DNA of 64,000 nucleotides from Candidatus Omnitrophota bacterium (GTDB taxonomy: Bacteria; Omnitrophota; Gorgyraeia; Zapsychrales; Fredricksoniimonadaceae), in contig CAIOTT010000049.1 of assembly GCA_903861305.1 (NCBI GenBank), forward strand, positions 4,265 through 68,264, read 5' to 3'. Below are positions 20,272 to 42,268 of the stretch, one piece after another. A program made the position numbers and the translations under genes. Under the pieces are notes generated by a model. It was not told where the DNA came from. It worked only from the letters and a program-made list of their open reading frames with translations, and made no database searches. The first letter of the stretch is position 1; each line of letters starts with the position of its first letter.

Positions 20272-20352
20272 TAAGGTATGGTATCATTGAGTTCAAAATA
20301 TTAATTATTTGCAGTCATGTCAATGAGAATGCTCTTATTCGAAAGGTAACGC

Positions 20353-23699: not shown

Positions 23700-24835
23700 A
23701 GAAGTATCATGCTATTGTCATCCACGCGTTGGCTGCGGCCATTTTCCTGTTCGGGCTCGCGTCAGGGTTTTCTGTCGCCGTAAGGAAACCGCTCTGGAAT
23801 GACGAGATATATTCCCAGGTGGCTAATATCGACGGGTTGAGCATGTCCGCCATTTGGCGCGGCGGCGTGCAGGAAGGCAATAACGCGCCATTGTTTTACG
23901 CGTTGCAGAAGGGGCTGTGTTCTCTCCTTCATTATTCCGCCGGGGATCTTTGGCACAAGCAGCCCTTTGAGGCGAGGATCATCCTGCGTATCTTGCCTGT
24001 CATGTTCATGGCACTGGGGCTGGCCATAAGCTTCTGGGCCTTTGCAAGGATGTACTCGATCGCTATAGGCGCGGTGGCGTTCCTGGCCGCGCTGAGCACG
24101 TATCTTGTCTGGGGGTATATCGCTGAGGCCAGGCCTTACGCGATGGTATTCTTTGGCAGTGTGCTGCAGGCGGCGGTCCTTTTAAGGGCGCTGCGTTCAA
24201 AGGATACTGCCCGGGGCTGGGGGCCCGTTGCCGCGGCACATCTGTTCCTGGCGGTCACGAGCCCTTTGAGCGTTATCCAGGTGACGTCGGCAGGGGTGGC
24301 TTTGTGGGGTTTTGGTTACCGCCGGCTTTGGCCTTTGCTGGCCATGATCGCTTTGCCTCTGGCCGTGGGGCTTGGGTACCATCAGCTTTACAGGGAACAT
24401 TACCATTTCTATTTTGCTTCTTACGGCCAGCCGCTGGAGCTCGTCAAAGCGGCGATCCCCGAAGGGCGGCTGCAGTTCCTTATTGTCCTTCCTTTTGTTC
24501 TTTGGGCGTGGGCGCGTCGCAGCGGTGAGAAGGTCGGCATGAATGTATGGCTTTTTCTTGGCTGGGCATGGCTGACGATCCTGGGTTACGGTGTTCTGCT
24601 TGGTTATTTGTGGCTGCACCGCAATGATCCAGCGGCAGGCGCGACATTCGAGGTGCCCAATCGCTATATGATGGCCCTGGCGGGCGTCAGCAGTGCCGCC
24701 ATGGCTGTGCTTTGCGCGGAACTTGTCCAGAGGCCGAAGGTGGTGTGGCTGCGCGTTATTGTCTGGAGCGGCATCCTTGTCCTTATCCTGCCGCGGGTCG
24801 TTAAGGTTTTTCGCTGGGCGGCAACGCTGAATTGA
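23696..24835 (+). CDS. Polytopic GT-C-type glycosyltransferase (ArnT/PMT-like)
   Basis: ATG 23696 overlaps the upstream TGA. About 10 TM helices, with an acidic motif in the first loop (PLWNDEIYSQ) as in the GT39/GT83 families. Confidence 0.55.
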   Translation: MKKYHAIVIHALAAAIFLFGLASGFSVAVRKPLWNDEIYSQVANIDGLSMSAIWRGGVQEGNNAPLFYALQKGLCSLLHYSAGDLWHKQPFEARIILRILPVMFMALGLAISFWAFARMYSIAIGAVAFLAALSTYLVWGYIAEARPYAMVFFGSVLQAAVLLRALRSKDTARGWGPVAAAHLFLAVTSPLSVIQVTSAGVALWGFGYRRLWPLLAMIALPLAVGLGYHQLYREHYHFYFASYGQPLELVKAAIPEGRLQFLIVLPFVLWAWARRSGEKVGMNVWLFLGWAWLTILGYGVLLGYLWLHRNDPAAGATFEVPNRYMMALAGVSSAAMAVLCAELVQRPKVVWLRVIVWSGILVLILPRVVKVFRWAATLN

Positions 24836-26246
24836 TCTTCGTCGACAAGGAACGTAAACGGTTTGTAATCTTATTAAGCAGGGTGCTTAGACCTTGTGTT
24901 TTTACCGTGTAGAAGATGTAGTAGAAGATTTTCAGATGGATAAGGTCATACATAAAATAATAATTTTCGACCTCACGTTTGGCTTCGGCGATCGCCATGC
25001 GGGCTTCATGTTCAGGCATTGTCGTTAAGTTCAGGTTAAAATCAGAGATCATGCTCCGGTCTAGGTCCATAAGGTACGCTTTTTCATCCACGATGTTCCC
25101 GTTGGCTTTGGCCGTGTCGTACAGTTCCGTCCCCGGGAAAGGGGTCGCATAAAAGAAAGACGGCCGCAGGCCCAGGCGTTTGCAGAAGTCCACGGTTTCG
25201 CGGAGGGTTATCCGGTCTTCGCCGACGTAACCCAGGATGATCGAGGCCTGGATCTCGTTGAAATATTTTTTCGCCAGATGCACCGCGCGCAGGCTTTTTT
25301 CCGCTGTGACGTTCTTCTTCATGATCTTGAGTATCCGGTCACTGCCTGATTCAAGCCCGAACGAGATGATGGTGCAGCCGCTTTCTTTTAACCATGCCAT
25401 GCGTTCCGCATCGATCGTGTCCACCCGTGATGTTACCCGGTATTTTACTTTCAGCTTGCTGTCGGTCAAGGCGCGGGTGAAGTCGCGCACCCAGCTTTTG
25501 GACATCGTGATGCATTCCCCGGTCAAGGCGAACAGCGTTATCTTGTCTTTGTACTTGTTCTTGAAATACACCATGTCATCGACGACATGCTGGGCGGGGC
25601 GATAACGGACATTCTTGCCGACCACCCGGAAGGCATTGAAACAAAACGTGCAATTGGAAGGGCACCCGCGCTGGACGTGGAGCTGAAAGACGCCGCTGGT
25701 GGTTTGAAGCAGGTCTTCCATGGGAAAACGTGTGTCGTCGAATCGCAGCAAATGGTCAAGGCCCGGCATTAATCCGCGCTGAGGCGTAAAAAGGATTTTT
25801 CCATCAGCCTTATAGGCAATGCCCTGGACCCGGGAAAGATCCCGTCCGCCACAGATCTCTTTGAGCAACTCAACGACCGTGACTTCCCCTTCACCGATAA
25901 CGATGCCATCGATATCCAATTCGTCAAAACAGCGCTCTTTCAATGATGACGCCAGCGGGCCTCCAAGGATGATGGTGCATGACGGCTTGATCTTCCTGAT
26001 CTGAGGTACCAGCCATGTCAGGTAAGGGTAAACCGTTACCAGGCCGCCAATGGCGATGACCTCTGCCCGGGACTTATGGATCGTTTCACATACGTGCTCC
26101 CGGGAGTAGCGGTACGCGTCAATATCCAGAAGTTCGACTTTATGCGCGTTTTGTTCCAGAACCTGAACAATGAAATCTATGCCGAACGAGGGGAATGTCG
26201 GCTTTCGATTAATGACCATTGGAGGGTTGATGACCAGGACATCCAT
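24801..26246 (-). CDS. Cobalamin-binding (class B) radical SAM enzyme
   Basis: N-terminal MDVLVINPP..VIGEGE B12-binding-like domain and cluster motif RGCPSNCTFC. Its 3' end overlaps the convergent GT-C gene by 35 nt. Confidence 0.8.
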   Translation of the reverse strand: MDVLVINPPMVINRKPTFPSFGIDFIVQVLEQNAHKVELLDIDAYRYSREHVCETIHKSRAEVIAIGGLVTVYPYLTWLVPQIRKIKPSCTIILGGPLASSLKERCFDELDIDGIVIGEGEVTVVELLKEICGGRDLSRVQGIAYKADGKILFTPQRGLMPGLDHLLRFDDTRFPMEDLLQTTSGVFQLHVQRGCPSNCTFCFNAFRVVGKNVRYRPAQHVVDDMVYFKNKYKDKITLFALTGECITMSKSWVRDFTRALTDSKLKVKYRVTSRVDTIDAERMAWLKESGCTIISFGLESGSDRILKIMKKNVTAEKSLRAVHLAKKYFNEIQASIILGYVGEDRITLRETVDFCKRLGLRPSFFYATPFPGTELYDTAKANGNIVDEKAYLMDLDRSMISDFNLNLTTMPEHEARMAIAEAKREVENYYFMYDLIHLKIFYYIFYTVKTQGLSTLLNKITNRLRSLSTKINSALPPSEKP

Positions 26247-26433: not shown

Positions 26434-26461
26434 TTGACAATAAGATTTCCTTTGCTATAAT
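26434..26461 (+). promoter_or_regulatory. Consensus sigma70-type promoter heading the regulator/protease/glycan gene array
   Basis: Perfect TTGACA (26434-26439), a 16-nt spacer, and perfect TATAAT (26456-26461), within an AT-rich intergenic region. Confidence 0.65.
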
Positions 26462-26501
26462 CGTTCATTCTTTGAACAGTCGATGGGTCCGGGGCTTCGT
26501 T

Positions 26502-27076
26502 ATGGATGAGCGGGAATTTGAATTGATCAACATTATCGGAGGGGAATTGGGCGCCAGCCAGCGCGATATTTCCCGCCAAATGAACCTTTCTTTGGGCATG
26601 ACCAACATGCTCATCCACCGGCTTTTGACCAAAGGCCATATCCGCATCAAACAGCTTAATAAAAAGAAAGTTGAATACCTGTTGACGCCCAAGGGGTTTG
26701 CTGAAAAGATGCAAAAATCTGTTAAATACACGCTTAAGACATTGAACTCCATCGGGTTAGTTAAAAAGAACATAGAAGGATTGCTTGCGCGTTTGCACGC
26801 CGCGGGTGCGCGTAAATTTTATGTGCTGGGGGCTTCGGACCTCGCGGGCCTTATCGAGATGGTCCTTGCGGAAGAATTCCCCGGTCAGTATGAATTGTTG
26901 CTGATCGAAGAAGTCCAGGATGTCCCGTCTGACGGGATCATCCTTATATGCCGGGAAGGGGTTGTTGTTCATGAAGGCGTCCGCGCAGTGCAGGTGATCG
27001 ATGAACTTGCCAGGGATGAGGCCTTCCTGACGCAAAGCCTGGTTGAAGACAGGATTCTGGCACAAGGGGGTGTGGC

Positions 27077-27080
<4 letters not shown>
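26502..27080 (+). CDS. Winged-helix (MarR-like) transcriptional regulator with a C-terminal Rossmann-like domain
   Basis: N-terminal wHTH pattern ASQRDISRQMNLSLGMTNMLIHRLLTKGHIRI..YLLTPKG. ATG 26502 is chosen because TTG 26472 would lie at or before the predicted transcription start site. Confidence 0.7.
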
Positions 27081-28854
<1,774 letters not shown>

Positions 28855-28875: not shown

Positions 28876-29763
28876 ATGAAAAAGATCATTTTGCCGCAGG
28901 ACTATGATTACGTCGGGATCTATTTGACGGACAAGTGTTTCCTCAAGTGCCCGTATTGCATCACGAGCCATCATGGATCGCGCTTTATCGGACGTGAGGG
29001 CTCGGCCTATTTGTCGCCGGAAGAATGGGTCCGGGGGCTGAACCGGCTTGTGCTCCCCAAGGATGTGCCTGTTTCCCTGCAGGGGGGGGAACCGTTCCTT
29101 TACAAGGGGATATGGCAGATCCTTGAGAATATTGAGCATAAGGTCGATATCATGACCGCGCTGCCGCCGCACTTGACGCGGGAACATTTCCTGAAATTAA
29201 AGACCCTTCAATGGAACCAGCGTCAGGCGCCGTACCCGACCATCCGTGTCAGTTTTCACAAGGGGCAGAATGATTTCAAGCAGCTCATCGAACGCATCGC
29301 GGGTCTGAATGACATCCTCAGCATCGGCCTTTATTACCTGACGCACCCCTCGGTATCGCAGGAAGAGATAAACGCCATGAAGGCCTGCGCGAAGGAAAAA
29401 GGCGTTGAGTTCAGGGCCAAGGATTTCCTCGGGTTTTATGAGGGGAAGATGTACGGTGAGCTGAAGTATCCCGGGTCCGTGGACGGAAAAAAGCAGGGTG
29501 TCATGGTGGCGTGCCGCAACACCGTCATGCCTGTCGGGCCTGACGGCGCCATTTACCTTTGTCATTCCGACCTTTATTTCAACCGCAGGGACCGGGCTTT
29601 AGGCCATATCCTTGATGAAACATTCGAGTTCCCGAAGGAACATGTGCCGTGCGAAAATTTCGGGCTTTGCAGCGAATGCGATGTGAAGATCAAGAACAAT
29701 CATTACCAGCAGTTCGGCTACACATCCGTTGATATCAAGGTTGCCCAGGAGGCGTCACGATGA
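28876..29763 (+). CDS. Radical SAM enzyme with C-terminal auxiliary Cys cluster (SPASM/twitch-like)
   Basis: LTDKCFLKCPYC (CxxxCxxC), a GGEP motif, and C-terminal ACRNTVMPVGPDGAIYLCH and CENFGLCSEC. Confidence 0.75.
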   Translation: MKKIILPQDYDYVGIYLTDKCFLKCPYCITSHHGSRFIGREGSAYLSPEEWVRGLNRLVLPKDVPVSLQGGEPFLYKGIWQILENIEHKVDIMTALPPHLTREHFLKLKTLQWNQRQAPYPTIRVSFHKGQNDFKQLIERIAGLNDILSIGLYYLTHPSVSQEEINAMKACAKEKGVEFRAKDFLGFYEGKMYGELKYPGSVDGKKQGVMVACRNTVMPVGPDGAIYLCHSDLYFNRRDRALGHILDETFEFPKEHVPCENFGLCSECDVKIKNNHYQQFGYTSVDIKVAQEASR

Positions 29764-30704
29764 TTCTGAAGAAACACAAGGTCCTTATCATCAAGGTCGG
29801 CCATTCCGAGACGCTTGACGCCGAGATCAGCAATATCACCAGTTACGGGGACGTGCTCCGTTCGACCGTTCTGCTCAACTTGTACAAGAACGACCACGTA
29901 ACCTGGCTGGTGGACGAGAAGGCGCTTCCGATCCTCAAGGGCAATCCGCATATCGACCGTATCCTGATCTATAACCTGACGTCGGTCCTGCAGCTGCAGG
30001 CGGAGCATTTTGATACGGTCATCAATCTGGAGAAGGTCCCGGGCCTGTGCGCCCTGGCGGATTCGATCAATGCCTGGCGCCGTTACGGCTTTCGTTTTGA
30101 TGTGCGCACCGGCGAGGCCGAAGCGTATGACAGGTCGGATGTCGTCCTTGAGGTCTGCCGCAGCATTGAAAAAAAGCGGAATCGCAAAGCCTGCTGGCAG
30201 GAAGGCCTTTTTGAGATGGTCGGGGCCGCGTGGGATGGCGAGGAATATGTTTTTGGCTATACGCCCAAGACAAAAGAGGTCCATGATATCGGGTTCAATT
30301 ACCAGGTGGGCAATAAATGGCCGCTCAAGGGGTGGCCGATGCCGTATTGGAAGAAGCTGGAGAAGCTGATCGGCAAGAAATATTCCGTTTCCTGGCAGCA
30401 GGGGCTTGAGGATATGGAAGATTATTTCGACTGGATCAATTCCTGCCGGATGCTGGTCACCAATGATTCTTTCGGTATGCATATCGCCCTGGCCCTGAAG
30501 AAAAAGGTGGTCACGATATTCGGACCGACGCAGGCCTGGGAAAATCATTATTACGGGCGCGGGGTAGCGTTATATTTCAAGGAACTTGACTGCCCGGATC
30601 ACCCCTGCCGCCGTTCCGATTGCGGTCTTTTCAAGGACGGGTGCATCACACAGGTGTCGCCCGGTGACGTTATGGCGGAGATCTCGCGCCGATTGGGGAA
30701 ATAG
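29760..30704 (+). CDS. GT9 family (heptosyltransferase-like) glycosyltransferase
   Basis: N-terminal KVLIIKVGHSE..GDVLRSTVLL..WLV and C-terminal NDSFGMHIALALKKKVVTIFGPT are typical GT9 blocks. Confidence 0.65.
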   Translation: MILKKHKVLIIKVGHSETLDAEISNITSYGDVLRSTVLLNLYKNDHVTWLVDEKALPILKGNPHIDRILIYNLTSVLQLQAEHFDTVINLEKVPGLCALADSINAWRRYGFRFDVRTGEAEAYDRSDVVLEVCRSIEKKRNRKACWQEGLFEMVGAAWDGEEYVFGYTPKTKEVHDIGFNYQVGNKWPLKGWPMPYWKKLEKLIGKKYSVSWQQGLEDMEDYFDWINSCRMLVTNDSFGMHIALALKKKVVTIFGPTQAWENHYYGRGVALYFKELDCPDHPCRRSDCGLFKDGCITQVSPGDVMAEISRRLGK

Positions 30705-30705
30705 G

Positions 30706-31773
30706 ATGGACAAATTCAGGATAGACGGGCACAAGCTGTTGTATCACGTCCCGCGGGTCAATGACTGGATGGAGGGCAAGAACACGTATCCGATCTATAT
30801 GGAGATCAGCCCGGCGGGTAATTGCAACCACCGGTGTGTTTATTGCGGCCTGGATTTCATGAAATACCAGAACCGCCGCCTGAAGACCGAGGTCCTGCGC
30901 GAACGCCTGGCGGAACTCGGGCGGCTGGGCCTCAAGAGCATCATGTATGCCGGGGAAGGTGAGCCGTTCCTGCACCCCGATATGCCGCTGATTACCGAGC
31001 TCACCCGCGCGGCGGGTATCGACCCGGCCTTTACGACCAACGGGGTCCTTCTGGATGAAGCCCGCGCGGCAAGGGTCCTGCCGGTGACATCCTGGATCAA
31101 GGTCAGCATAAACGCGGGAACAAAGGCGACGTATGCCGCTGTCCATGGCTGCAAGGAAGGCGACTTTGATACGGTCCTCGGCAATATGCGCCGCGCCGCC
31201 GCGTTGCGACGCGCGACAAAAGTGCCCTGCACGCTGGGGATGCAGATCCTGCTGCTGCCCGAGAACAGCCGCGAGGTGACGACGCTCGCCGGGATCGCGC
31301 GAGACATCGGGATGGATTATCTCGTCGTGAAGCCCTATTCCCAGCACCCCCAGAGCGAGACGACCAAGTATGCCGGGATCAGCTATGAGCAGCACGCCCC
31401 CCTGGCGGATGAGCTGGCGGCGTATGACACAAAGGATTTCCAGGTCATTTTTCGCATGCAGGCCATGCGCCGGTGGGATGCGGCGGGCAAGCGTTACGGT
31501 TGCTGCCTCGCTTTGCCGTTCTGGTCTTATATCGACGCGGGCGGCGGCGTGTGGGGCTGCAGCGTTTATTTGAGCGACGACCGTTTTTATTACGGCAGCA
31601 TTTACGAGAACACGTTCGAAGAGATCTGGACCGGTGAGCGGCGGATGAATTCGCTCGCATGGGTCCGTGAAAAGCTTGATATTTCCCAATGCCGCGTGAA
31701 TTGCCGGATGGACGCGGTCAACCAGTATTTGTGGGAACTGAAAAACCCTCCGGCGCATGTGAATTTCATCTGA
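30706..31773 (+). CDS. Radical SAM enzyme, SPASM/twitch-like (paralog of 35808-36878)
   Basis: ISPAGNCNHRCVYCG cluster motif, GEGEP, and C-terminal Cys-rich region (CCLALPFWSYIDAGGGVWGC, CRVNC). ATG 30706 lies 1 nt after the upstream stop, and the track extension from 30586 is rejected. Confidence 0.75.
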   Translation: MDKFRIDGHKLLYHVPRVNDWMEGKNTYPIYMEISPAGNCNHRCVYCGLDFMKYQNRRLKTEVLRERLAELGRLGLKSIMYAGEGEPFLHPDMPLITELTRAAGIDPAFTTNGVLLDEARAARVLPVTSWIKVSINAGTKATYAAVHGCKEGDFDTVLGNMRRAAALRRATKVPCTLGMQILLLPENSREVTTLAGIARDIGMDYLVVKPYSQHPQSETTKYAGISYEQHAPLADELAAYDTKDFQVIFRMQAMRRWDAAGKRYGCCLALPFWSYIDAGGGVWGCSVYLSDDRFYYGSIYENTFEEIWTGERRMNSLAWVREKLDISQCRVNCRMDAVNQYLWELKNPPAHVNFI

Positions 31774-31776
31774 CCT

Positions 31777-32607
31777 ATGGACAACCTGGCATTGAAGGCA
31801 CAACAGATCCGCAAGGACATATTCAAGACCATCTGCAACGGGGGCGGGGGGCATACACCTTCCGCGCTTTCTATCGTTGAGATACTGACGGTCCTTTATT
31901 TTGAGATACTGAATGTGGACCCGAAGGCGCCCCGGCACCCGGACCGCGACCGTTTCGTGCTGAGCAAGGGGCACGCGGGTGTGGCCCTTTATGCGGTGCT
32001 GGCGGAAAAAGGCTTCTTTGACAAAGCGTTGCTTGGAACTTTCGGAAAACCCGGGACGATGCTCGGCGGGCATCCGGATATGCACAAGGTCCCGGGGGTC
32101 GAGGCATCTACGGGCGCCCTGGGGCACGGGTTCCCGTTCTCTGTCGGGCTCGCCCTGGCGGGGAAGATGGACAAGCGGCCTTACCGGGTCTTCACGATCG
32201 TGGGGGACGGTGAGTGCCAGGAAGGTTCCATCTGGGAAGCGGCCCTGTTCGCGCCCAAGCATGGGCTGGATAACCTGGTGTGCATTGTGGACCATAACAA
32301 GTTCCAGGCCATGGACCATCTGGATGAGATCATTCCCATGGCCCCCTTCGCGGACAAATGGAAAGCGTTCGGCTGGGCGGTGCACGAGGTGGACGGGCAC
32401 GACATCCCGGCGCTCAGGGATATTTTTTCCCGGCGGCCCATCGCGCCCGGGAAGCCTGCCGTTATCATCGCGCATACGGTCAAGGGCAAGGGCATTTCAT
32501 TCATGGAGAACGTGCCGATCTGGCATTACCGTATGCCGGGCCCGAAGGAACTTGAAACAGCGGCGGCAGAGCTTGGCCTGGTCCTTAACAACGGGGTGCT
32601 CTCATGA
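31777..32607 (+). CDS. Transketolase, N-terminal (ThDP-binding) subunit
   Basis: GGHTPSALS, SKGHAG, GALGHG and IVGDGECQEG..DHN are ThDP-binding motifs of split transketolases. Confidence 0.9.
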   Translation: MDNLALKAQQIRKDIFKTICNGGGGHTPSALSIVEILTVLYFEILNVDPKAPRHPDRDRFVLSKGHAGVALYAVLAEKGFFDKALLGTFGKPGTMLGGHPDMHKVPGVEASTGALGHGFPFSVGLALAGKMDKRPYRVFTIVGDGECQEGSIWEAALFAPKHGLDNLVCIVDHNKFQAMDHLDEIIPMAPFADKWKAFGWAVHEVDGHDIPALRDIFSRRPIAPGKPAVIIAHTVKGKGISFMENVPIWHYRMPGPKELETAAAELGLVLNNGVLS

Positions 32608-33548
32608 GGAATGCTTATCTGCAGGCGATGCACGAACTGGCGGGCCGGGACCGCAATATACTGGCGCTTATTTCCGACAACGGCGCGGTTGTCTATGACA
32701 AATACCGCAGCGCGTATCCAGAGCAGTATTTCAATATGGGCATTTCGGAGCAGAACATGGTCAGCGCGGCGGCCGGCCTCGCGTCGTGCGGGAAGATCCC
32801 GTTCGCTTACACGATCTCGAATTTCCTGGTTTACCGGGCTTTCGAACAGATACGCAATGACGTGTGTTTGCAGAAAATGAACGTGAAGCTGGTGGGGATC
32901 GGGGTCGGGTTTGTTTACAGCAACCTTGGCCCGACGCACCACGGCACGGAGGATATTGCGGTCCTGAGGTGCCTGCCGCATATGACGATCTTTTCTCCCG
33001 CGGACCCGCTGGAGACCCGGAACGTCACCCTCGCGGCCGCGGCGATCAACGGCCCGGTGTATATCCGCCTGGCCACAGGGGGTTCGCCGGCCATTTATGA
33101 GAAGGATTATGATTTTGTCGTCGGCAAGGCTGTCGTCCTCCGGCCGGGCAGCGACATCACGGTCATGTCAACCGGCAGCGGGGTCCATGAAGCGCTCCAG
33201 GCGGTCCAGGAGCTTGCCGCCCAGGGCATTGCGGCGCGTCTTGTTAATTTTCATACGATCAAACCCATTGACCGTGAGGCCATCGTGAGGGCGGCCCGAG
33301 AAACGGGCAAGGTCCTGGTCGTGGAAGAACAGAATACCAGCGGCGGCCTGGCCGGCGCGGTCGCCGAAGTGCTGATGGAAGAAGGCATGGGCGGCATCAA
33401 GTTCCGCCGGATGGGGCTTAAGGACAGCTTTGCGCAGGGGTATGGTTCGTATCACGACTTGCAGGAGATGAATGGCCTTTCCAGGCGGTACATTATGGAA
33501 GCCGCTAAAAGCATGGTTGCTGATACCGTGCCGGAAGGCCTCTCATGA
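32604..33548 (+). CDS. Transketolase, C-terminal (pyrimidine-binding/C-terminal domain) subunit
   Basis: GISEQNMVSAAAGLA, GPTHHGTEDIA and the downstream C-terminal domain. 4-nt overlap with the N-terminal subunit gene. Confidence 0.9.
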   Translation: MRNAYLQAMHELAGRDRNILALISDNGAVVYDKYRSAYPEQYFNMGISEQNMVSAAAGLASCGKIPFAYTISNFLVYRAFEQIRNDVCLQKMNVKLVGIGVGFVYSNLGPTHHGTEDIAVLRCLPHMTIFSPADPLETRNVTLAAAAINGPVYIRLATGGSPAIYEKDYDFVVGKAVVLRPGSDITVMSTGSGVHEALQAVQELAAQGIAARLVNFHTIKPIDREAIVRAARETGKVLVVEEQNTSGGLAGAVAEVLMEEGMGGIKFRRMGLKDSFAQGYGSYHDLQEMNGLSRRYIMEAAKSMVADTVPEGLS

Positions 33549-35134
33549 GAACGCTCATTGTCCTTCCTGATTTTCAACAACAGCAGGCCTATCATTTTCC
33601 TTTGGGCATCCCGTATGTTTCTTCTTATTTAAAAAGCAAGGGGCATGACATTACGGCGTTCAATGCGAATCATTATGCAGCGTCACAACTGGATGAAGTT
33701 CTTTCCCGGGGCGGCTTTGATGTGGTGGCGACGGGAGGATTGTTCGTCCATGCAGCGGTCGTTAAAAGCCTTGTCGATCGCGTCCGTGAAAAAAGCCCGC
33801 GGTCAAAGGTCGTTTTAGGAGGTGCGCTTGTCGCCGGAGATCCTGAATATGTTTTTGACGCACTCAAGCCCGATCATATGGTCCTTGGAGAAGGCGAAAC
33901 AGTAATGGAAGAGCTGCTCAAGACCCTGGCGCATGGCGGCGACCTCGCGGGTGTTGCCGGGATCGCGTATAAAGCGAACGGCCGTTTCGTGCGTACGGAG
34001 GCGGCGCCTTTGATCGAGTCGCTGGATTCCCTGCCGTTCCCGGATTATGAAGGATTTGAGTTTGGCCGTTTTCTGGATTCAGCCCCGAAGCGGATCGCTA
34101 ATATTATTTCGAGCAGGGATTGTGTCAGCAAATGCACGTTCTGCTTCAGGATGATGGGTGGAAAGTTCCGCCTGCGCTCACTGGCGAACCTGATGGGGGA
34201 GATCCATTACCTGCGCGACAAATATCAGATCAAAGAGGTTGGCCTTTTGGATGACATGTTCGCGGCAGACAAGAACAGGGTCATGGAATTTTGCCGCCTG
34301 ATCAAGCCGTTGGGCATTCCATGGACGTGTCAGCTGCGCGTTAACATTGTTGATGATCAGTTGCTGAGCCATATGAAAGACGCGGGGTGCCACTTTATCA
34401 GTTATGGTTTTGAAAGCGGCAGTTCGAAGGTCCTCAAGAGCATGAGGAAGGGGGTCACGCCCCAGCAGATCGATCATGCGATCCAGGCGACCCTGAAAGC
34501 AAACATAACCATTCAGGGCAATTTTATTTTTGGAGACCCGGCGGAAGATCTTAAGACGGTGGAAGAGACCATCCGCTTTACCAGGAAATTCAGCAAATTG
34601 AATATTGGGTATGGGCACATCATCCCGTATCCGGGAACAGTTTTGTACCATGATCTTGTCCGCAGGGGGGGCATCAAGGACCGCTGGGCGTTCTTTTTGA
34701 ACCCAACCGGAGCGCAGTACAACATGACGTCTCTTTCTGATATCGATTATGCCTATTTGAAAAGGAAGGTTTTTGTTGAGGGGCTCTGGCGCCGGTGCCA
34801 GGGATCGGGGAGGATCGTAAAGTTCAAGAAGATCCGGCCTGATGTTTACGACCTGTCGATCCGCTGTCAGCTTTGCGGGACCGTTCATGTGTTCGAGAAA
34901 TTCAACCGCGATCAGGAGTGCAGCCATTTTATTTGCAAGAATTGTTATCAAAGGGTCTTTTGGGATGAAGGGGACCTGAGGTTCATGGATATTGCATGTA
35001 TACGGCACAGGTTTGTCGGCCTTTATATTTGGGGTTTTATCTGTTCTTCACCTGGCCTTCATCGCTGCATTGAGCCGATCCTCATGGGTATAAAAAAGAT
35101 CAACTCCGTGGTCAAGAAAACATTGAGAGGCTGA
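33545..35134 (+). CDS. Cobalamin-binding (class B) radical SAM enzyme
   Basis: N-terminal B12-binding-like domain (MVLGEGE), cluster motif SRDCVSKCTFC, and an additional C-terminal Cys pairs region (CQLCG..CKNC). Confidence 0.8.
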   Translation: MRTLIVLPDFQQQQAYHFPLGIPYVSSYLKSKGHDITAFNANHYAASQLDEVLSRGGFDVVATGGLFVHAAVVKSLVDRVREKSPRSKVVLGGALVAGDPEYVFDALKPDHMVLGEGETVMEELLKTLAHGGDLAGVAGIAYKANGRFVRTEAAPLIESLDSLPFPDYEGFEFGRFLDSAPKRIANIISSRDCVSKCTFCFRMMGGKFRLRSLANLMGEIHYLRDKYQIKEVGLLDDMFAADKNRVMEFCRLIKPLGIPWTCQLRVNIVDDQLLSHMKDAGCHFISYGFESGSSKVLKSMRKGVTPQQIDHAIQATLKANITIQGNFIFGDPAEDLKTVEETIRFTRKFSKLNIGYGHIIPYPGTVLYHDLVRRGGIKDRWAFFLNPTGAQYNMTSLSDIDYAYLKRKVFVEGLWRRCQGSGRIVKFKKIRPDVYDLSIRCQLCGTVHVFEKFNRDQECSHFICKNCYQRVFWDEGDLRFMDIACIRHRFVGLYIWGFICSSPGLHRCIEPILMGIKKINSVVKKTLRG

Positions 35135-35135
35135 T

Positions 35136-35798
35136 ATGGGACAGTTGATGAATATCATCACACCTTTGCACACACGCTCAAAGCGTGAATACCTTGCCCG
35201 GATGGTCAATGACAAGGTGCATTGCTCCGAAGTGGCGCGCAAGTTCGAGGCTGATTTCTGGGACGGCGAGCGCAAGTACGGTTACGGCGGGTATAAATAT
35301 GATGGGCGCTGGGTGGCGGTCGCGCAGGCGTTGATCGACCAATACCGGCTGTCCCCCCATGCCCGCATCCTTGATGTGGGGTGCGGAAAGGGGTTCCTGC
35401 TTCATGAATTAAAGAAACTTCTTCCCGGGGCTGCTGTCGTCGGGATCGACATTTCGGATCACGCTTTGCGCGGGGCTAAGGAAGAAGTGAAGCCCTTCTT
35501 GTCTAAGCAGCGCGCGCAGGACCCGTATCCTTTCAAGGACAAGGAGTTCGATCTTGTTTTTTCAAACACGACGCTGCATAACCTGCCTGTGCAGGAACTT
35601 GACCCTGCGTTGCGGGAGATCCAAAGGGTCGGCAAGCGGTCGTATATTTGCGTGGAAAGTTTCCGCACGGTCCAGGAACTGTTCAATGTGCAGTGCTGGG
35701 CGCTGACCTGCGAAACTTTTCTCAGGCCCGAGGGGTGGCAGTGGTTGTTCCAAGAGGCCGGGTACACCGGGGACTATGAATTCATCTATTTTGAGTAA
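35136..35798 (+). CDS. Class I SAM-dependent methyltransferase
   Basis: SAM motif I ILDVGCGKGFLL and motif II-like DLVFSNTTLHN. Confidence 0.8.
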   Translation: MGQLMNIITPLHTRSKREYLARMVNDKVHCSEVARKFEADFWDGERKYGYGGYKYDGRWVAVAQALIDQYRLSPHARILDVGCGKGFLLHELKKLLPGAAVVGIDISDHALRGAKEEVKPFLSKQRAQDPYPFKDKEFDLVFSNTTLHNLPVQELDPALREIQRVGKRSYICVESFRTVQELFNVQCWALTCETFLRPEGWQWLFQEAGYTGDYEFIYFE

Positions 35799-35807
35799 AA
35801 CAAAATT

Positions 35808-36878
35808 ATGGGTAATCTTTACACGAAATTAAAGATCTTTCATTTTCAGAACAAGCTTGATTCCCTGCCGCGGGGCGTGGATCAGGTCCTGGCGCCTGTG
35901 CACATCAGGATCAAGCCGACAAATATGTGCAATCACCGCTGCTGGTATTGCGCCTATCGGGCCGAGGACCTCCAGCTGGGCAAGGATATGGTCATCAAGG
36001 ACGTGATCCCGCAGGCCAAGATGATGGAGATCATCGACGATATTGCGGCCATGGGTGTCAAAGCCGTGACGTTCAGCGGCGGCGGGGAGCCGTTCTGTTA
36101 CCCGCACCTGGCGGCAGCGGCGAAAGCCCTGGCCGGGCACAAGATCAAGTTCGCCTCATTGACCAACGGCGCATTGCTCAGCGGTGAAGCCGCGGAGATC
36201 TTTGCGGCGCACGGAACGTGGGTCCGCATTTCCATGGACGGTTGGGATGATGCCCGTTACATGAAGTACCGTCAGGCGAAAGACGGGGAGTTTACGAGGA
36301 TCATCCGCAATATCAAGGCGTTCAAGGCTTATCGGGGCCAATGTCTCCTGGGCGTGAGCTTTATCCTGGATAAGGATAATTATCCTCATTTTTACGATCT
36401 TGCGAAGCAATTGAAAGATGTAGGTGTTGACAGCCTGAAGGTGGCCCCGTGCATTGTTTCCAATACATCGCAGGGGAACAATGATTATCATGGCCCGTTC
36501 TTCGACGCGGCGCAGGAGGTCATCGCCAGGACATGCGCGGATCTGTCAGATGCAACATTCGAGATATCCAACACGTACCATCAGCAGCAAACCAGTTTTA
36601 ACAAGAATTATGACTGGTGCCCCTATTTGCAGATACTTCCGATCATTGGGGCGGACCTGAATGTGTATTCCTGCCAGGACAAGGCTTACAACCTTGATTG
36701 CGGCCTGCTTGGGTCTATCAAAGATGTCCGGTTCAAGGATTTCTGGTTCTCTGATAAGAACAAGTTCTTTACGATCAACCCCGCGCGTGATTGCGGGCAC
36801 CATTGCGTGGCTGACGGGAAAAACAAGCTTGTGCTTGAATATCTCGAAGCTGACCCCGGGCATTTGGATTTTGTATGA
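35808..36878 (+). CDS. Radical SAM enzyme, SPASM/twitch-like (paralog of 30706-31773)
   Basis: IKPTNMCNHRCWYCAY, GGGEP, and C-terminal Cys region (WCPYLQILPIIGADLNVYSC, CGHHC). Confidence 0.75.
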   Translation: MGNLYTKLKIFHFQNKLDSLPRGVDQVLAPVHIRIKPTNMCNHRCWYCAYRAEDLQLGKDMVIKDVIPQAKMMEIIDDIAAMGVKAVTFSGGGEPFCYPHLAAAAKALAGHKIKFASLTNGALLSGEAAEIFAAHGTWVRISMDGWDDARYMKYRQAKDGEFTRIIRNIKAFKAYRGQCLLGVSFILDKDNYPHFYDLAKQLKDVGVDSLKVAPCIVSNTSQGNNDYHGPFFDAAQEVIARTCADLSDATFEISNTYHQQQTSFNKNYDWCPYLQILPIIGADLNVYSCQDKAYNLDCGLLGSIKDVRFKDFWFSDKNKFFTINPARDCGHHCVADGKNKLVLEYLEADPGHLDFV

Positions 36879-37792
36879 ACAACATGGACGTCGCCAATAT
36901 CAAAAAGATCGTGATCCTCGGGCACAGCGGTTTTGTCGGGGGGCATGTGTGGCGTGCTTTTGAGCGCCAGTTCCCCGGTGTTGAACGGATCGGCATGTCA
37001 TTCCCGGAGCTTGACCTGACGGCGCCTGAAAGTGTTTCGACGCTGGCGGGCTTGTTCGACAGCCATACGGCTGTGGTCTTGTGTTCTGCGGTCAAGCGGC
37101 AGTTCGGCGACACCCTGGATGCGTATCAGAAAAATGTGGCCATGTGCCTTAATGTGGCCCGGGCCATCGAGCTGGCGCCGGTAGCGCGGCTGATATTTTT
37201 CAGTTCCTCGGCCGTCTACGGCGAGGATATTCACAACAGGAACATTACGGAAACCACGCCGGTGTGCGTGCGTTCGTATTATGGTCTTGCCAAACATACC
37301 GGAGAATTGATCTTTGAACGTGTCTTTAGCCGTCTGCCGGGGGCCTTCGTTGCTGTTCGCCCGCCCCTTATTTATGGTCCGGGAGATCAGGGGCATACGT
37401 ACGGCCCCGCAGGGTTTCTTGCCTGTGTGCTGCAGGGGCAGGTCATCACGCTCTGGGGGGACGGGGAGGAGCTCAGGGAGTTCCTTTTCGTTGATGATGT
37501 CTGCGCGTTGCTCGGCCGTCTGCTGAAGGGCGATCACCGTGGCGTGGTGAACCTGAGTTCCGGCCAAAGCCGTACCTTCCGGGATGTTATGGAGATCCTC
37601 CGGGAACTGGCCCCCGGACGTGTCCGCGTCGATTCGCGCCCGCGTTCCAAAGACAAGGTTGACAATGCCTTCGACGGCAGCAGGCTCCAGCAATGGGTGG
37701 GCGGTTATTCTTTCATGCCCCTGGAGCAGGGTTTGCGCCGGATGCATGAGATCGAGGCTTCTGCTCCCCGTCCGCAGGAGGTACGTTCATGA
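36875..37792 (+). CDS. NAD(P)-dependent sugar epimerase/reductase (extended SDR)
   Basis: VILGHSGFVGG Rossmann motif and YGLAK (YxxxK). Confidence 0.75.
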   Translation: MNNMDVANIKKIVILGHSGFVGGHVWRAFERQFPGVERIGMSFPELDLTAPESVSTLAGLFDSHTAVVLCSAVKRQFGDTLDAYQKNVAMCLNVARAIELAPVARLIFFSSSAVYGEDIHNRNITETTPVCVRSYYGLAKHTGELIFERVFSRLPGAFVAVRPPLIYGPGDQGHTYGPAGFLACVLQGQVITLWGDGEELREFLFVDDVCALLGRLLKGDHRGVVNLSSGQSRTFRDVMEILRELAPGRVRVDSRPRSKDKVDNAFDGSRLQQWVGGYSFMPLEQGLRRMHEIEASAPRPQEVRS

Positions 37793-38985
37793 GAAAGTGC
37801 CGGGTCTGCCGTTCTGAGCATTTGACGCCCGCGATGGATGCCGGCCTTCAGCCGATCAGCAACCGTTACGTGCGCACACCGGAGGAAAGGGAAAACTTGT
37901 TCCCCTTGACCTGGGACCTGTGCGGCGATTGCGGCATGCTGCAGCTGGCGGGCTTGATCCCGCCGGAAGAGCTCCAGCCCAGGTTTGACTGGATCACGTA
38001 TAATGAGCCTGAGGACCATCTGGATGCCATGGTGGCAATGCTGGGCGGTCTTGCGGGCATGAGCGCGCAAAAAAAGATCCTGGGGATCAGCTTCAAGGAT
38101 GACACGACCTTGCGGCGGTTAGGGCACAAAGGGTTTAAGAACACCTACCGCCTGGATCCTTTGAAAGATCTCGGGATAACCTGTCCCGGTGCGGGAGCGG
38201 AAACATTGCAGTTAAGGATCGAGCCCCAAAGGCTGCGGGCCTTTGCGCAGTCCCATGGCCGCAGCGACATGGTCATCGTCCGCCATATCCTCGAGCACGC
38301 GCATGATCCCGCGGCATTCCTGGATGGGCTCAAGGAACTGGTCAACCCGGGCGGTTACCTTGTGATAGAGGTCCCTGATTGTTCACGCGCGATAAGGCGT
38401 CAGGATTACACCACGCTCTGGGAAGAGCATGTGCTGTATTTTTCTCCCGTAACATTTCAATGCTGCCTGCGTGAGGCCGGTTTCTCGCTGAAGCAGTTCT
38501 GTATTTATCCCTATGCATTTGAAGATTCCCTGGTTGGTGTGGTCCAGGCGGCTCCCGGGTCCGCGGCTGAGCGCGGCGGGCCCGATAGCCAGGCTATGGC
38601 CGATGTGCGGCGTTTTGCCGACGGCTTCAAGGATCACGGGGCCGCGGTGCGGCTGGCGTTCGAAAGAATGAGACGTGAGCATGGCAGGATCGCCGCTCTG
38701 GGGGCCGGACATCTGGCGAGTTCATATATTAATTTTTTTGACCTTGGCCCGCTGATCGAATGTGTGATGGATGATGACCCTCACAAGGAAGGACTTTTCA
38801 TGCCGGGATCGCGATTGCCGATCCTTCCCTTCCGGACATGGCCAGAGAACAATATCAAGGTTTGCGCTCTGATGATCAACCCCATGAGCGAGGACAAGGT
38901 GCTTTCACGGTACGCGTCTTTTCTTGAGCAGGGAGGGATGTTCGTGTCCATTTTTCCCGAAAGCCGTCTGGCTTTAAAAATCTAG
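37789..38985 (+). CDS. NDP-sugar C-methyltransferase-like enzyme (TylC3 family architecture) with N-terminal zinc ribbon
   Basis: CRVCRS..CGDCGMLQL zinc ribbon, a methyltransferase core (VRHILEHAHDP..GGYLVIEVPD), and a C-terminal Rossmann-like domain (ALGAGH). Confidence 0.6.
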   Translation: MRKCRVCRSEHLTPAMDAGLQPISNRYVRTPEERENLFPLTWDLCGDCGMLQLAGLIPPEELQPRFDWITYNEPEDHLDAMVAMLGGLAGMSAQKKILGISFKDDTTLRRLGHKGFKNTYRLDPLKDLGITCPGAGAETLQLRIEPQRLRAFAQSHGRSDMVIVRHILEHAHDPAAFLDGLKELVNPGGYLVIEVPDCSRAIRRQDYTTLWEEHVLYFSPVTFQCCLREAGFSLKQFCIYPYAFEDSLVGVVQAAPGSAAERGGPDSQAMADVRRFADGFKDHGAAVRLAFERMRREHGRIAALGAGHLASSYINFFDLGPLIECVMDDDPHKEGLFMPGSRLPILPFRTWPENNIKVCALMINPMSEDKVLSRYASFLEQGGMFVSIFPESRLALKI

Positions 38986-38994: not shown

Positions 38995-39504
38995 ATGCCC
39001 TATAAGAAGATCAATGACGAGGTCTATTACGCCGAGGGGAGCATCGTCGAGTTTTCGGCCAAAGACTATGTTTTTCTCAAAGAGGCCGCGGCACGCAATC
39101 CGCGCCAGCGCTCCCGCCTTTGCGTGCATCCCGGCACGGACGCGCCGATCCATGAAATGTTCATCGTGCATCATCATGGCGCCTATGTCCGTCCTCACAA
39201 ACAGCTGGCCAAGAACGAGTCGTTGCAGATACTTGAAGGCGAAGCCGATGTCCTGCTTTTCGACGAAGCCGGCAAGCTGCTGCGTATCATAGAGCTCGGG
39301 GATATGGCGTCGGGCAAGACGTTCTTTTACCGGATGGAACACCAGGATTTTCATACCTTGAGGATCCATTCGCCGATAGTTTTTATCAAGGAAGTGACGG
39401 CAGGGCCCTTCCTTTTGAAGAACACGATCTTTGCCCCCTGGTCGCCCGACGAGAAAGATACCGCCGGGGTGGTGAAGTTCCTGGAACAGATACGGACCAT
39501 GTGA
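38995..39504 (+). CDS. WbuC family cupin-fold protein
   Basis: NPRQRSRLCVHPGTDAPIHEMFIVHHHGAYVRPHK matches my recollection of the WbuC family core. The size of 169 aa fits. Confidence 0.65.
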   Translation: MPYKKINDEVYYAEGSIVEFSAKDYVFLKEAAARNPRQRSRLCVHPGTDAPIHEMFIVHHHGAYVRPHKQLAKNESLQILEGEADVLLFDEAGKLLRIIELGDMASGKTFFYRMEHQDFHTLRIHSPIVFIKEVTAGPFLLKNTIFAPWSPDEKDTAGVVKFLEQIRTM

Positions 39505-39526: not shown

Positions 39527-40768
39527 ATGCTAAAGCCATACTATCAAAGGACAACATGCCGTTTGTGCGATTCGACGCGCGTGGTTTCGGGGGTCAAGTT
39601 CGAGGCGACGCCGCCCGGAGATATCTTTATTCCCCGCGAGGCGCTGGATAAACCGCAGGAGCGTTACCCTTTGGAGGTCATGCTCTGCGAGGATTGCGGG
39701 AGCATCCAGCTCTTGAATGTGGTCGATCCGCAGATCCTTTACGGCACATATCTTTATGAAACTTCATCCTCGCTCGGTTTGCCCGAGCATTTCCGCAGGT
39801 ATGCCCGTGAGGTCGTGGACCTGACCGGTGTGCTGGCGGGGTCGCTGGTCGTTGACATCGGCAGCAATGACGGGACGCTGTTGCGCTGTTTTCAGGAAAT
39901 GGGGATGCGGGCTTTGGGTGTTGATCCTTCGCCGATGGCGGTGGCGACGGCGCGTTCGCGGGGCGTGGAAACGATCCAGGCATTTTTTAACAGGGATATG
40001 GCCGCGGACCTGCGGGAGCGCCACGGCAGCATCGCGATCGTGACCGCGAACAACGTGATCGCCAATGTGGACGCCCTGGGTGATTTTGTCGACGGCATCC
40101 GTGACCTGATCGACCCGGACGGGTATTTTGTAATGGAAACAGGCTGCGGGAAAAGCCTGTTCGACAACAAGTTGATCGATGTGGTTTACCATGAGCATCT
40201 GTCGTATTTCACCGTTAAGCCGCTCGAAGCTTTCTTCCGCCGCCATGGCATGAAGATGATCGATGCCTGTCATATCCCCACCAAGGGCGGGTCGATCCGC
40301 TGTGTGGTGCAATCGGAAAGATCATCGCGCGTCCCGGAGAGGACGGTCGCGGCGATGATCGCCCTTGAAGAGGAAGGCGGCGCAGGTACATTGGCGCCGT
40401 GCCGTGAAATGACGGCGTTCATCAGGGAAAGGAAGGCCGGGCTGCTGTCGCTGCTGGACCGGTTGAAAGCGGAAGGCAAGACCGTCGCGGGGTATGGGGC
40501 ATCTGTCGGGGTGACGACGCTCCTGTATTTGATGGACCTGGACAGGAGGCTGGATTATTTGCTGGATGACAACCCGGTCCGTTTCGGGCTTTTTTCACCC
40601 GGGCATCATGTCCCGGTATTTGATTCGCGGGAAGTGGCCTGGCGCAAGCCGGACTACATCCTCATCCTGGCCTGGCGTTACAACGATCCGATCATGAAAC
40701 GCCATGGGGCATACACCGGCCGGGGAGGGCGTTTTATCACGTTCCTTCCTGAGCTCAGGGTCATATAA
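39527..40768 (+). CDS. NDP-sugar C-methyltransferase (TylC3 family architecture) with N-terminal zinc ribbon
   Basis: CRLCDS..CEDCGSIQL zinc ribbon, SAM motif VVDIGSNDGTLL, and a C-terminal domain (VAGYGASVG..LLDDNP). Confidence 0.7.
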   Translation: MLKPYYQRTTCRLCDSTRVVSGVKFEATPPGDIFIPREALDKPQERYPLEVMLCEDCGSIQLLNVVDPQILYGTYLYETSSSLGLPEHFRRYAREVVDLTGVLAGSLVVDIGSNDGTLLRCFQEMGMRALGVDPSPMAVATARSRGVETIQAFFNRDMAADLRERHGSIAIVTANNVIANVDALGDFVDGIRDLIDPDGYFVMETGCGKSLFDNKLIDVVYHEHLSYFTVKPLEAFFRRHGMKMIDACHIPTKGGSIRCVVQSERSSRVPERTVAAMIALEEEGGAGTLAPCREMTAFIRERKAGLLSLLDRLKAEGKTVAGYGASVGVTTLLYLMDLDRRLDYLLDDNPVRFGLFSPGHHVPVFDSREVAWRKPDYILILAWRYNDPIMKRHGAYTGRGGRFITFLPELRVI

Positions 40769-40798: not shown

Positions 40799-42268
40799 AT
40801 GGCTAAAGAATTCAATGTTGTTCTCGTTGTGCCCAATCTTCGCTGGATCGATTCCGACATCAACGCGTTGTGGCACTATGTGCCCTACAATCTGTGCATC
40901 CTCGGTGCGATGATCGAGCCGCTATGCCGGGTTTCCATCATTGACGCGTACAAGCATGACATGTCCCCCGAGCTTTTCTCGGCGAAGATCAGGGAGAGCC
41001 GTCCGGATGTTGTCGGCTTGACCATCCTGATGGACCAATACGCTGAAGCGGGGCACCAGGCCGCGCGCCTGGTCAAAGCCGCTGTCCCCGGCGCGAAGGT
41101 TATCCTGGGGGGTGTTTACGCGACGATGAATCCGCTGAAGGCGGCAGAGGATGTGAATGTTGATTATGTCATGGTCGGGGAGGGCGAATACGCTTTTCGT
41201 GATCTCATCCTCCATTTCAAAGGCGAGAGGGACCTGCCTGAAAAGGGGTTGTGTTTTCGCCGTGACGGGAAGCTGGTGAACAGCGGGCGGGCAGAGTTCA
41301 TCAAGGACCTGGATGCTTTGCCGTTACCCGCCTATCATCTCATTGATTTCCTGTCGTATGCCAATGCGGCGGACAGAAAAAGTGTCGATGCCCCGCCGTG
41401 TTTTCCCTATGCGCGGCTGCTCACGTCAAGAGGGTGCCCCTACGGGTGCGTGTTCTGCCAGGTGGAATCCATCATGGGCAAGAAGTTCCGCAGCCGCAGC
41501 GCCGAAAATGTCCTCAGCGAGATCCGTTACCTGAAAGGAACATACGGCGTCCGGTCGCTCATGTTCGATGATGACAATCTATTTACGGACAAGGCGAGGG
41601 CCAAGGCGATCTTCCGGGGCATGATCGAACAGGGGTTGAGCATGCCCTGGCTGGCGATGTCAGTCGCGGTTTTCAGGCTGGATGAAGAAATGCTCGTGCT
41701 GATGAAACAGAGCGGGTGCGAATACATCAATATCGCGATCGAATCGGGCAGCAAGCGGGTCTTGACCGAGATCGTGCACAAACCGGTCGATTATGATCAC
41801 GCCAAGGAAATGGTCCGGCTGGCGAAACGCGAGGGGCTCTACGTGGCGGCAAATTTCATTGTCGGCTTCCCCACAGAAACATGGGACGAGATCCGCACGA
41901 CGGTGCGATTCGCGGAGGAACTGGGCATTGATTACATGAAGCTTTTTGCGGCCATTCCGCTTGAGAACACGCGCTTGTGGGACCTGTGTGTCAAGGAAGG
42001 GGCTTTTAAAAAGAATTTCTCGGAATCCGGGCGGCACTGGAGTTCAGGGCAGATAGAGACCAAGGATTTTTCATCGGCTGACCTGACCTTCCTCAGGGCG
42101 TATGAGTGGGACCGGGTGAATTTTTCGGACCCTGAGAAACGCCGCAAGACCGCGGCACGCATGAAGATCACCGAGGAGGAGCTCCTGCGGATCAGGCGGG
42201 GTACGCTCGATAACGCGAAGAACCGCGTTTATCTGGACCAAAAGGGCAAGCTGGAAAACAACACCTGA
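40799..42268 (+). CDS. Cobalamin-binding (class B) radical SAM enzyme
   Basis: N-terminal B12-binding-like domain (VMVGEGE) and cluster motif SRGCPYGCVFC. Confidence 0.8.
   Translation: MAKEFNVVLVVPNLRWIDSDINALWHYVPYNLCILGAMIEPLCRVSIIDAYKHDMSPELFSAKIRESRPDVVGLTILMDQYAEAGHQAARLVKAAVPGAKVILGGVYATMNPLKAAEDVNVDYVMVGEGEYAFRDLILHFKGERDLPEKGLCFRRDGKLVNSGRAEFIKDLDALPLPAYHLIDFLSYANAADRKSVDAPPCFPYARLLTSRGCPYGCVFCQVESIMGKKFRSRSAENVLSEIRYLKGTYGVRSLMFDDDNLFTDKARAKAIFRGMIEQGLSMPWLAMSVAVFRLDEEMLVLMKQSGCEYINIAIESGSKRVLTEIVHKPVDYDHAKEMVRLAKREGLYVAANFIVGFPTETWDEIRTTVRFAEELGIDYMKLFAAIPLENTRLWDLCVKEGAFKKNFSESGRHWSSGQIETKDFSSADLTFLRAYEWDRVNFSDPEKRRKTAARMKITEEELLRIRRGTLDNAKNRVYLDQKGKLENNT

Follow-up and report, generated by a model that had tools for sequence, protein, structure and literature searches.

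The window analysed here is a stretch of 64,000 nucleotides from a Candidatus Omnitrophota bacterium (assembly GCA_903861305.1, contig CAIOTT010000049.1), and the element in question is a block of eight plus-strand open reading frames at 28876–36878. The block encodes two subunits, TK*-N (TktN) and TK*-C (TktC), of a transketolase-like (TK-like) enzyme, referred to as TK*, together with three radical S-adenosylmethionine (SAM) enzymes (rSAM1, rSAM2 and rSAM3), a glycosyltransferase family 9 (GT9)-like protein, a B12-binding (class B) radical SAM protein and the methyltransferase MT220. The best explanation of the block is that it is the central part of a module, widespread among anaerobes, whose role would be to rebuild the carbon skeleton of a glycan sugar. 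Since two radical enzymes and a methyltransferase accompany TK* across many anaerobic lineages, the product is most likely an unusual branched or lengthened sugar. An initial annotation of this DNA had listed the same eight genes, and their order, coordinates and domains agree exactly with the open reading frames and domain matches found here (Table 1). Its wider interpretation, in which a split transketolase beside radical enzymes extends or branches an activated sugar, is upheld in part, and on better evidence than the annotation itself had offered.

TK* retains the catalytic machinery of a transketolase and carries an altered substrate pocket. The top domain matches are Transketolase_N, Transket_pyr and Transketolase_C, with E1_dh only as a secondary match, and are thus those of a transketolase rather than of a decarboxylase/E1-type fold. 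The best matches in the PDB are the structures 6YAK and 6YAJ of the split transketolase of Carboxydothermus hydrogenoformans (E=1.5e-78 and 1.3e-69), with which TK* shares the two-subunit organization, the GDG...N motif, the catalytic His residues and the cofactor-activating Glu. In TK*-N the motif that binds thiamine diphosphate (ThDP) and Mg (GDG143-145...N174) is retained, as are the catalytic residues His26, His66, His99 and His250, which are at least 97% conserved in 120 homologues. TK*-C retains E49, aligned to the Glu of 'AEQN', H112 in 'PTHH', and R2, the equivalent of human R318. In canonical transketolases the substrate phosphate is held by human R318, S345, H416 and R474 (E. coli R358, S385, H461 and R520), and the C2-hydroxyl of the acceptor by human D424 (E. 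coli D469), the catalytic His residues of the E. coli enzyme being H26, H66, H100, H261 and H473. An alignment in which the human chain numbering equals that of the literature shows S345, H416, D424 and R474 replaced in TK*-C by V29, G100, L108 and T158, leaving R2 as the only one of the four phosphate-binding residues, with the acceptor-binding Asp replaced as well. The same substitutions are seen against 6YAJ, in which the segments 'DADLSKSTK', 'ATHAG', 'GEDG' and 'RLGRSG' correspond to 'SDNGAVVYDKY', 'GIGVG', 'SNLG' and 'RLATGG' of TK*. Three further residues of TK*-N, H117, R252 and G90, are specific to the clade, and R252 lies two positions after the catalytic His.

These pocket substitutions are found in all of the 21 best loci returned by our scan (L001–L021), while the 63 split transketolases that follow (L022–L084), from Clostridium, Veillonella and relatives, are canonical and form a separate group with at most 47% identity to TK*. 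The best match to TktC among GTDB representatives is 63% identical. At the position of D424 the syntenic TK-like genes carry Leu, Gln or Ala, and the canonical triad is absent from all 44 TK-like high-scoring segment pairs of the loci that contain rSAM3, where several pocket subtypes are present; many subtypes have Lys at the R474 position. Even among the 150 best representatives of clusters at 50% identity, the canonical triad occurs in only 23. The initial annotation had taken the split gene as a sign that the enzyme is not a housekeeping transketolase. That argument does not hold, since canonical split transketolases are common and one of them has been characterised and its structure solved (6YAK), so that the split architecture is uninformative about function. 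The proposal it was meant to support, that TK* is a dedicated enzyme of a glycan pathway rather than of pentose-phosphate metabolism, is nevertheless supported at the sequence level by its place in a clade with a rebuilt pocket that is co-inherited with rSAM2, rSAM3 and MT220 across phyla, and the glycan operon in which it lies also sets it apart from canonical transketolases. An ordinary role, as a supplier of sedoheptulose 7-phosphate for heptose synthesis or as the sole pentose-phosphate transketolase of the cell, would be in keeping with the strong conservation of TK*-N (64–73% identity across phyla) and with its position next to heptose-activation genes in many genomes, as in L004, with HldE-like, GmhA-like and short-chain dehydrogenase/reductase (SDR) genes immediately ahead of TK*. 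Such a role fits poorly with the replacement of three of the four phosphate ligands and of the acceptor Asp, with the lack of any canonical TK-like gene at this syntenic position and with the separate grouping of the canonical split enzymes, and we consider it very unlikely.

The module was compared across 63 TK-like loci from nine or more lineages, many of them on truncated contigs, and in this set every TK-like gene that is syntenic with orthologues of MT220 and rSAM3 is non-canonical. One of the best 21 loci is identical to the window, and the others belong to Sedimentisphaerales, Planctomycetia, Ca. Magnetobacterium, Omnitrophota, Lachnospiraceae, Methanoperedens and a bacterium of the candidate phyla radiation (CPR). 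When the window genes were searched against the TK* loci, the recurrent set comprised rSAM2, rSAM3, TktN, TktC and MT220, frequently accompanied by a WbuC cupin, a DegT aminotransferase, C-methyltransferases, B12 radical SAM genes and a TIGR04372 transferase. Among 20 genome loci, 17 have rSAM2 and/or rSAM3 beside TK* and 14 have MT220 there. In the opposite direction, metagenome loci were collected with rSAM3 as the starting point, and the 40 with at least 3 kb upstream of this gene were used; an MT220 homologue lies directly upstream of rSAM3 in 25 of them, and all 18 rSAM3 loci whose MT220 homologue has at least 50% identity carry a TK-like gene. Of 46 loci compared for the gene that immediately precedes TktN, 17 have a twitch radical SAM gene at this place and 12 a 4,6-dehydratase-like SDR gene. 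A full-text search of the literature found no description of the module.

Our favoured reading, which we hold at slightly less than an even chance, has three parts: a nucleotide sugar, probably a heptose, gains a carbonyl through the action of a twitch radical SAM enzyme or an SDR; TK* then adds a two-carbon unit; and MT220 methylates the product. The steps that we infer would begin with rSAM2 or rSAM3 forming the carbonyl on the nucleotide-linked sugar, a task that the dehydratase-like SDR would take over in other genomes. The order of carbonyl formation followed by C2 transfer is favoured because the gene upstream of TktN often encodes a radical SAM enzyme or an SDR, both able to form a carbonyl. 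TK* would then transfer glycolaldehyde/hydroxyacetyl, or a related ThDP-bound C2 unit, onto the carbonyl to give a C2-branched or C2-extended sugar, and MT220 would methylate the new group. The other member of the rSAM2/rSAM3 pair, together with the class B radical SAM protein, the SDR, the cupin and the C-methyltransferases, may finish the sugar, which the GT9-like and/or TIGR04372 transferases would install alongside a pseudaminic-acid-type sugar that the operon would also make. For the C2 transfer, already suggested by the initial annotation, there is a published precedent in miharamycin and amipurimycin biosynthesis in Streptomyces, where a split transketolase that follows a keto-sugar-making oxidoreductase in a sugar-tailoring cluster is proposed to transfer a C2 ketol unit, placing a hydroxyacetyl branch on a keto-sugar (PMC12247030). 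Those transketolases, compared with TK* here by gene context and proposed chemistry, differ in being encoded among actinomycete secondary-metabolite genes and in having no twitch radical SAM partner; 13 of 13 such split sequences in Krug et al. 2024 come from Streptomycetes. A second likeness, in function only, is to YerE/ErwE, ThDP-dependent enzymes that branch CDP-4-keto-3,6-dideoxyglucose in O-antigen sugars and so likewise add a carbon unit to a nucleotide-linked keto-sugar of a surface glycan (PMC12247030). They differ from TK* in belonging to the decarboxylase (acetolactate-synthase-like) superfamily, in being single polypeptides and in using 2-oxo acid donors.

Several observations weigh against this reading. 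The miharamycin precedent is an unproven proposal, which leaves the suggestion of the initial annotation with a published parallel and not with a demonstrated one. No natural transketolase is known to accept ketones. The retained R2, together with the frequent Lys at the R474 position, possibly indicates that the substrate of TK* is anionic and may be phosphorylated. The real acceptor could be UDP-4-keto-6-deoxy-HexNAc, the product of PseB, which is encoded in the same operon. Sets of rSAM2, methyltransferase and rSAM3 also occur without a transketolase (L121, L123, L124, L134, L161 and L164), with a more distant methyltransferase, so that TK* is an addition to an older pathway and not its centre. 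Finally, the window contains no heptose-activation genes, so that the heptose assignment is drawn from other genomes and from the GT9 family signature; a Gram-negative host with a heptose pool for its own lipopolysaccharide (LPS) would not need them.

The donor could also be different. As a carboligase of the DXS/E1 kind, TK* would remove CO2 from pyruvate, hydroxypyruvate or a longer 2-oxo acid, and the acyl-anion equivalent thus formed would be attached to the sugar as an acetyl, hydroxyethyl or longer branch, which makes this a variant of the favoured reading rather than a true alternative to it. Against the DXS model TK*-C reaches 178 bits, although canonical split transketolases are also scored by such models, and the conserved R252 beside the catalytic His of TK*-N could bind a carboxylate, although all of the His residues that handle the C1-hydroxyl of the donor are retained. 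Every known ThDP enzyme that branches sugars draws on a 2-oxo acid (PMC12247030), and one locus (L085, Margulisbacteria-type; 12875–14945, 19216–20843) holds a non-canonical transketolase, an E1 alpha/beta-like pair and a YerE/acetolactate-synthase-like enzyme in a single cluster. On balance a 2-oxo acid donor appears quite unlikely.

The substrate of the module is most likely a heptose, drawn in this organism from its own nucleotide-heptose pool. HldE-like, GmhA-like or GSU2086-family genes lie beside the module in 29 of the 63 TK-like loci, and in 8 others (the window and seven more) rSAM1 and/or the GT9-like gene are found instead. These two front ends never occur together (both, 0 loci; rSAM1/GT9 only, 8; heptose activation only, 29; neither, 26; Fisher p=0.006). 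The C-terminal GT9 signature of the window protein, which it shares with GT9 heptosyltransferases, fits the use of a nucleotide-heptose. The likeness to the ADP-heptose pathway (GmhA, HldE) thus resides in the associated genes of other genomes, where the HldE-like protein (508–526 aa) matches both HldE domains in reversed order and the GmhA-like isomerase retains the phosphate motif ISxSGxS, read against an E. coli reference sequence. The scores of the HldE-like, GmhA-like and GT9-like proteins are all below equivalog cutoffs. The GSU2086-family protein (306–331 aa; NF052581, 407 bits) has a deoxyhypusine-synthase/ArgZ-like Rossmann fold and is 60–74% identical across Omnitrophota, Nitrospirota and Methanoperedens; its gene is present in L004, L007–L009, L013, L016, L085 and many metagenome loci and always adjoins the HldE-like gene.

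The activation genes also bear on the order of the steps. In the lincomycin octose pathway, the transaldolase LmbR opens the sequence, and the GmhA-like enzyme LmbN, a kinase, a phosphatase and a nucleotidyltransferase come after it in that order. TK* might similarly build the chain before activation, with a sugar phosphate or a free aldose taking up a C2 unit and the lengthened ketose then being isomerised, phosphorylated and nucleotidylated. The GmhA-like isomerase with its phosphate motif and the HldE-like kinase/nucleotidyltransferase beside the TK-like genes are what this order would call for, and the retention of R2 and the Lys at the R474 position of other subtypes would suit a phosphorylated substrate. 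Against it, TK* is present without an isomerase or kinase within reach in the window, L002, L003, L167 and L168, the same activation genes are kept in loci that lack a transketolase, and the presence of the transketolase tracks the methyltransferase subtype rather than the activation genes. Canonical transketolases, moreover, take C3–C6 acceptors without a rebuilt phosphate site. Chain building before activation is therefore regarded as unlikely, and C2 transfer onto the nucleotide-linked sugar remains the order that we favour.

The putative carbonyl-forming enzymes, rSAM2 and rSAM3, are paralogous over their full length (25% identity, E=1e-28), as the initial annotation had recognized from their NCNHRCVYC and MCNHRCWYC motifs, which are accompanied by GEGEP in rSAM2 and GGGEP in rSAM3. 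The CX3CX2C motif and four invariant C-terminal Cys residues are present in 20 members of the rSAM2 family and 19 of the rSAM3 family. Only rSAM2 gives a match to the SPASM domain of Pfam, and this match is weak. With CX3CX2C and one set of auxiliary-cluster Cys, both proteins resemble the dehydrogenase BtrN and the epimerase HygY, and the spacing C-x17-C-x43-C-x3-C is similar to that of BtrN. The nearest solved relatives include the sugar-nucleotide enzymes BlsE and DesII, with E-values of only ~1e-6, and neither protein has a family-level match in NCBIfam (best 72 bits against a cutoff of 380). From these features rSAM2 is a candidate sugar dehydrogenase or epimerase. The class B radical SAM protein, whose best NCBIfam matches, HpnJ and PhpK, are both below cutoff, reaches no equivalog cutoff; it is probably a C-methyltransferase, judged from its sequence, and its gene is a lineage-specific insert between TK*-C and MT220. 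The abundance of radical SAM enzymes, nine in the window, might also suggest that TK* serves to dispose of 5'-deoxyadenosine by turning 5-deoxyribose into 7-deoxysedoheptulose, a reaction for which a Synechococcus transketolase, reported to act on this non-phosphorylated acceptor, offers a precedent (PMC8102628). This too fits poorly, because no salvage nucleosidase, phosphorylase or isomerase is encoded nearby, the tight synteny with the methyltransferase and sugar-nucleotide enzymes would be left unexplained and L004 has TK* without a radical SAM gene; we regard such a role as extremely improbable.

In its broadest form, the favoured reading would mean that anaerobic bacteria and archaea share an unrecognised route to higher-carbon or C2-branched heptoses, in which a twitch radical SAM enzyme oxidises a nucleotide sugar without oxygen or NAD and a diversifying TK-like family forms the C–C bond on the nucleotide sugar. 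We put this forward tentatively, as possible but doubtful. If true, TK* would become the first enzyme of the transketolase superfamily shown to act on a nucleotide sugar, and the pocket subtypes would generate glycan diversity. Thousands of metagenome genes named 'transketolase' appear to belong to this radiation with rebuilt pockets. Should such enzymes form C–C bonds on glycan precursors, they would help to explain the exotic surface sugars of uncultured anaerobes (Omnitrophota, Planctomycetota, Nitrospirota, gut Lachnospiraceae and Methanoperedens) and would provide the first testable natural transketolases that take non-phosphorylated or ketone-type acceptors, long sought by enzyme engineers. 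An annotation error that inflates the pentose-phosphate capacity inferred for metagenome-assembled genomes (MAGs) would also be corrected.

The front end of the block in this lineage consists of rSAM1 and the GT9-like protein, whose genes are translationally coupled. The initial annotation had described three radical SAM paralogues; this is correct for rSAM2 and rSAM3, whereas rSAM1 has no specific similarity to them and shares only the SPASM/twitch fold class. It does belong to that class according to its AlphaFold2 (AF2) model (pLDDT 92), for which the top structural matches are SuiB, EpeE and MoaA (TM 0.46–0.56). The protein has C21, C25 and C28 together with five invariant C-terminal Cys residues, belongs to a small family and gave no match in a PDB sequence search. 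In two other genomes a homologue of rSAM1 is fused to a MarR-type helix-turn-helix (HTH) domain (P0443 and P0483, 485 and 489 aa; L167, 2226–3695), which suggests a functional link between the radical SAM enzyme and the 'regulator' that opens the operon. In L167, CYTH, DUF4956, CotH and VTC genes (3758–7866) are located between the MarR–rSAM1 fusion and the GT9-like gene, and the locus is otherwise syntenic. The PF01075 match of the GT9-like protein is confined to residues 221–261 and covers a C-terminal nucleotide-sugar motif; the sequence also shows an NDSFGMH motif and, in its N-terminal part, a YGDV motif. On the heptosyltransferase equivalog TIGR02195 it scores 36 bits against a cutoff of 135, short of a full-length heptosyltransferase match. 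The GT9-like protein was also considered as the missing PseG and ruled out, as it has no PseG match and is present in L003 and L167, which lack Pse genes.

The block lies within a plus-strand operon of ~37 kb with ~34 co-directional genes, which runs from 26472 to at least 63329, and neighbouring genes of the block overlap by 4 nt or are spaced by 1–21 nt. The features of the region are collected in Table 1.

Table 1. Features of the block and of the surrounding operon (window coordinates)
Feature	Position	Strand	Evidence and remarks
Promoter-like site TTGACA-16-TATAAT (sigma-70-type)	26434..26461	+	12/12 matches, TG extension; 10 nt upstream of first operon gene
MarR-family exopolysaccharide (EPS)-associated regulator-like HTH protein	26472..27080	+	TIGR04176 E=1.4e-13, below cutoff; opens operon
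Papain-family cysteine protease, in glycan operon	27077-27808		Peptidase_C1, E=4e-16; overlaps MarR-like gene by 4 nt
PseB, UDP-GlcNAc 4,6-dehydratase (inverting)	27823..28854	+	TIGR03589, 481 bits vs cutoff 408
rSAM1, small SPASM/twitch-class radical SAM enzyme, 295 aa	28876..29763	+	PF04055 E=1.4e-9; CFLKCPYC motif
GT9-like (heptosyltransferase-family) glycosyltransferase	29760..30704	+	PF01075, 38.8 bits vs gathering cutoff 22; best PDB match 3tov (GT9), E=4e-8
rSAM2, twitch-type radical SAM	30706..31773	+	Weak SPASM match; auxiliary-cluster Cys C267, C285, C329, C333
TK*-N, ThDP (PP-domain) subunit	31777..32607	+	Transketolase_N, E=2.7e-39
TK*-C, Pyr and C-terminal domains	32604..33548	+	Transket_pyr and Transketolase_C
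Class B (B12-binding) radical SAM	33545..35134	+	PF02310, 50.8 bits; PF04055, 61.7 bits
MT220, class I SAM methyltransferase	35136..35798	+	Tightest partner of TK-like genes
rSAM3, twitch-type radical SAM, rSAM2 paralogue	35808..36878	+	Cys C271, C289, C329, C333
SDR, GDP-fucose-synthase-like epimerase/reductase	36875..37792	+	
Sugar C-methyltransferase-like protein	37789..38985	+	Methyltransf_13 and Methyltransf_14 domains; co-conserved with module
WbuC-family cupin (DUF6016)	38995..39504	+	TIGR04366, 115.8 bits vs cutoff 42; recurrent in module
NDP-sugar C-methyltransferase	39527..40768	+	TylC3-type architecture; co-conserved with module
Two TIGR04372-family putative glycosyltransferases	43351-44565, 45407-47077		187 and 207 bits; no Pfam match
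RmlD-like reductase domain fused to full PseC aminotransferase, 748 aa	51404-53650		TIGR03588, 482 bits vs cutoff 424
Xylose-isomerase-like TIM-barrel gene	57209-57979		AP_endonuc_2; abuts PseI (57980-59056) without gap
Six B12-binding (class B) radical SAM genes in 64 kb	16380-18089 (+), 24801-26246 (-), 33545-35134, 40799-42268, 49948-51486, 60915-62600 (+)		

The region is a surface-glycan island. PseB, PseC and PseI (the last with 352 bits against 340) all score above their NCBIfam cutoffs, and PseB is predicted to supply a UDP-4-keto-6-deoxy sugar. No match to PseG was found among the window proteins, and a GNAT protein and a cytidylyltransferase, which would fill the PseH and PseF roles of the pseudaminic acid pathway, gave weak or generic matches only. 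In addition to these two, the operon encodes an ABC exporter, an ATP-grasp enzyme, several SDRs and aminotransferases. Six of the nine radical SAM genes are of the B12-binding type and three are not, an unusual density for one glycan island that implies heavy anaerobic C-methylation or rearrangement of sugars. The cupin (DUF6016) gave no match in a PDB sequence search. A role in flagellin glycosylation is unsupported here, as the window yielded no flagellar genes; flgM lies near the module in L168. A role of TK* as the decarboxylase of a nonulosonic 2-keto acid was ruled out, most TK* loci having no NeuB/PseI homologues. Homologues of the two TIGR04372-family genes are recurrent in related loci, and L109 holds a homologue of the Peptidase_C1 gene with 30% identity. 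In the deltaproteobacterial locus L168 (3191–5083), NeuB and AP_endonuc_2 are fused in one protein of 630 aa, which, with the adjacency of the two genes in the window, suggests that the nonulosonic acid synthase is coupled to a further step that has gone unrecognised.

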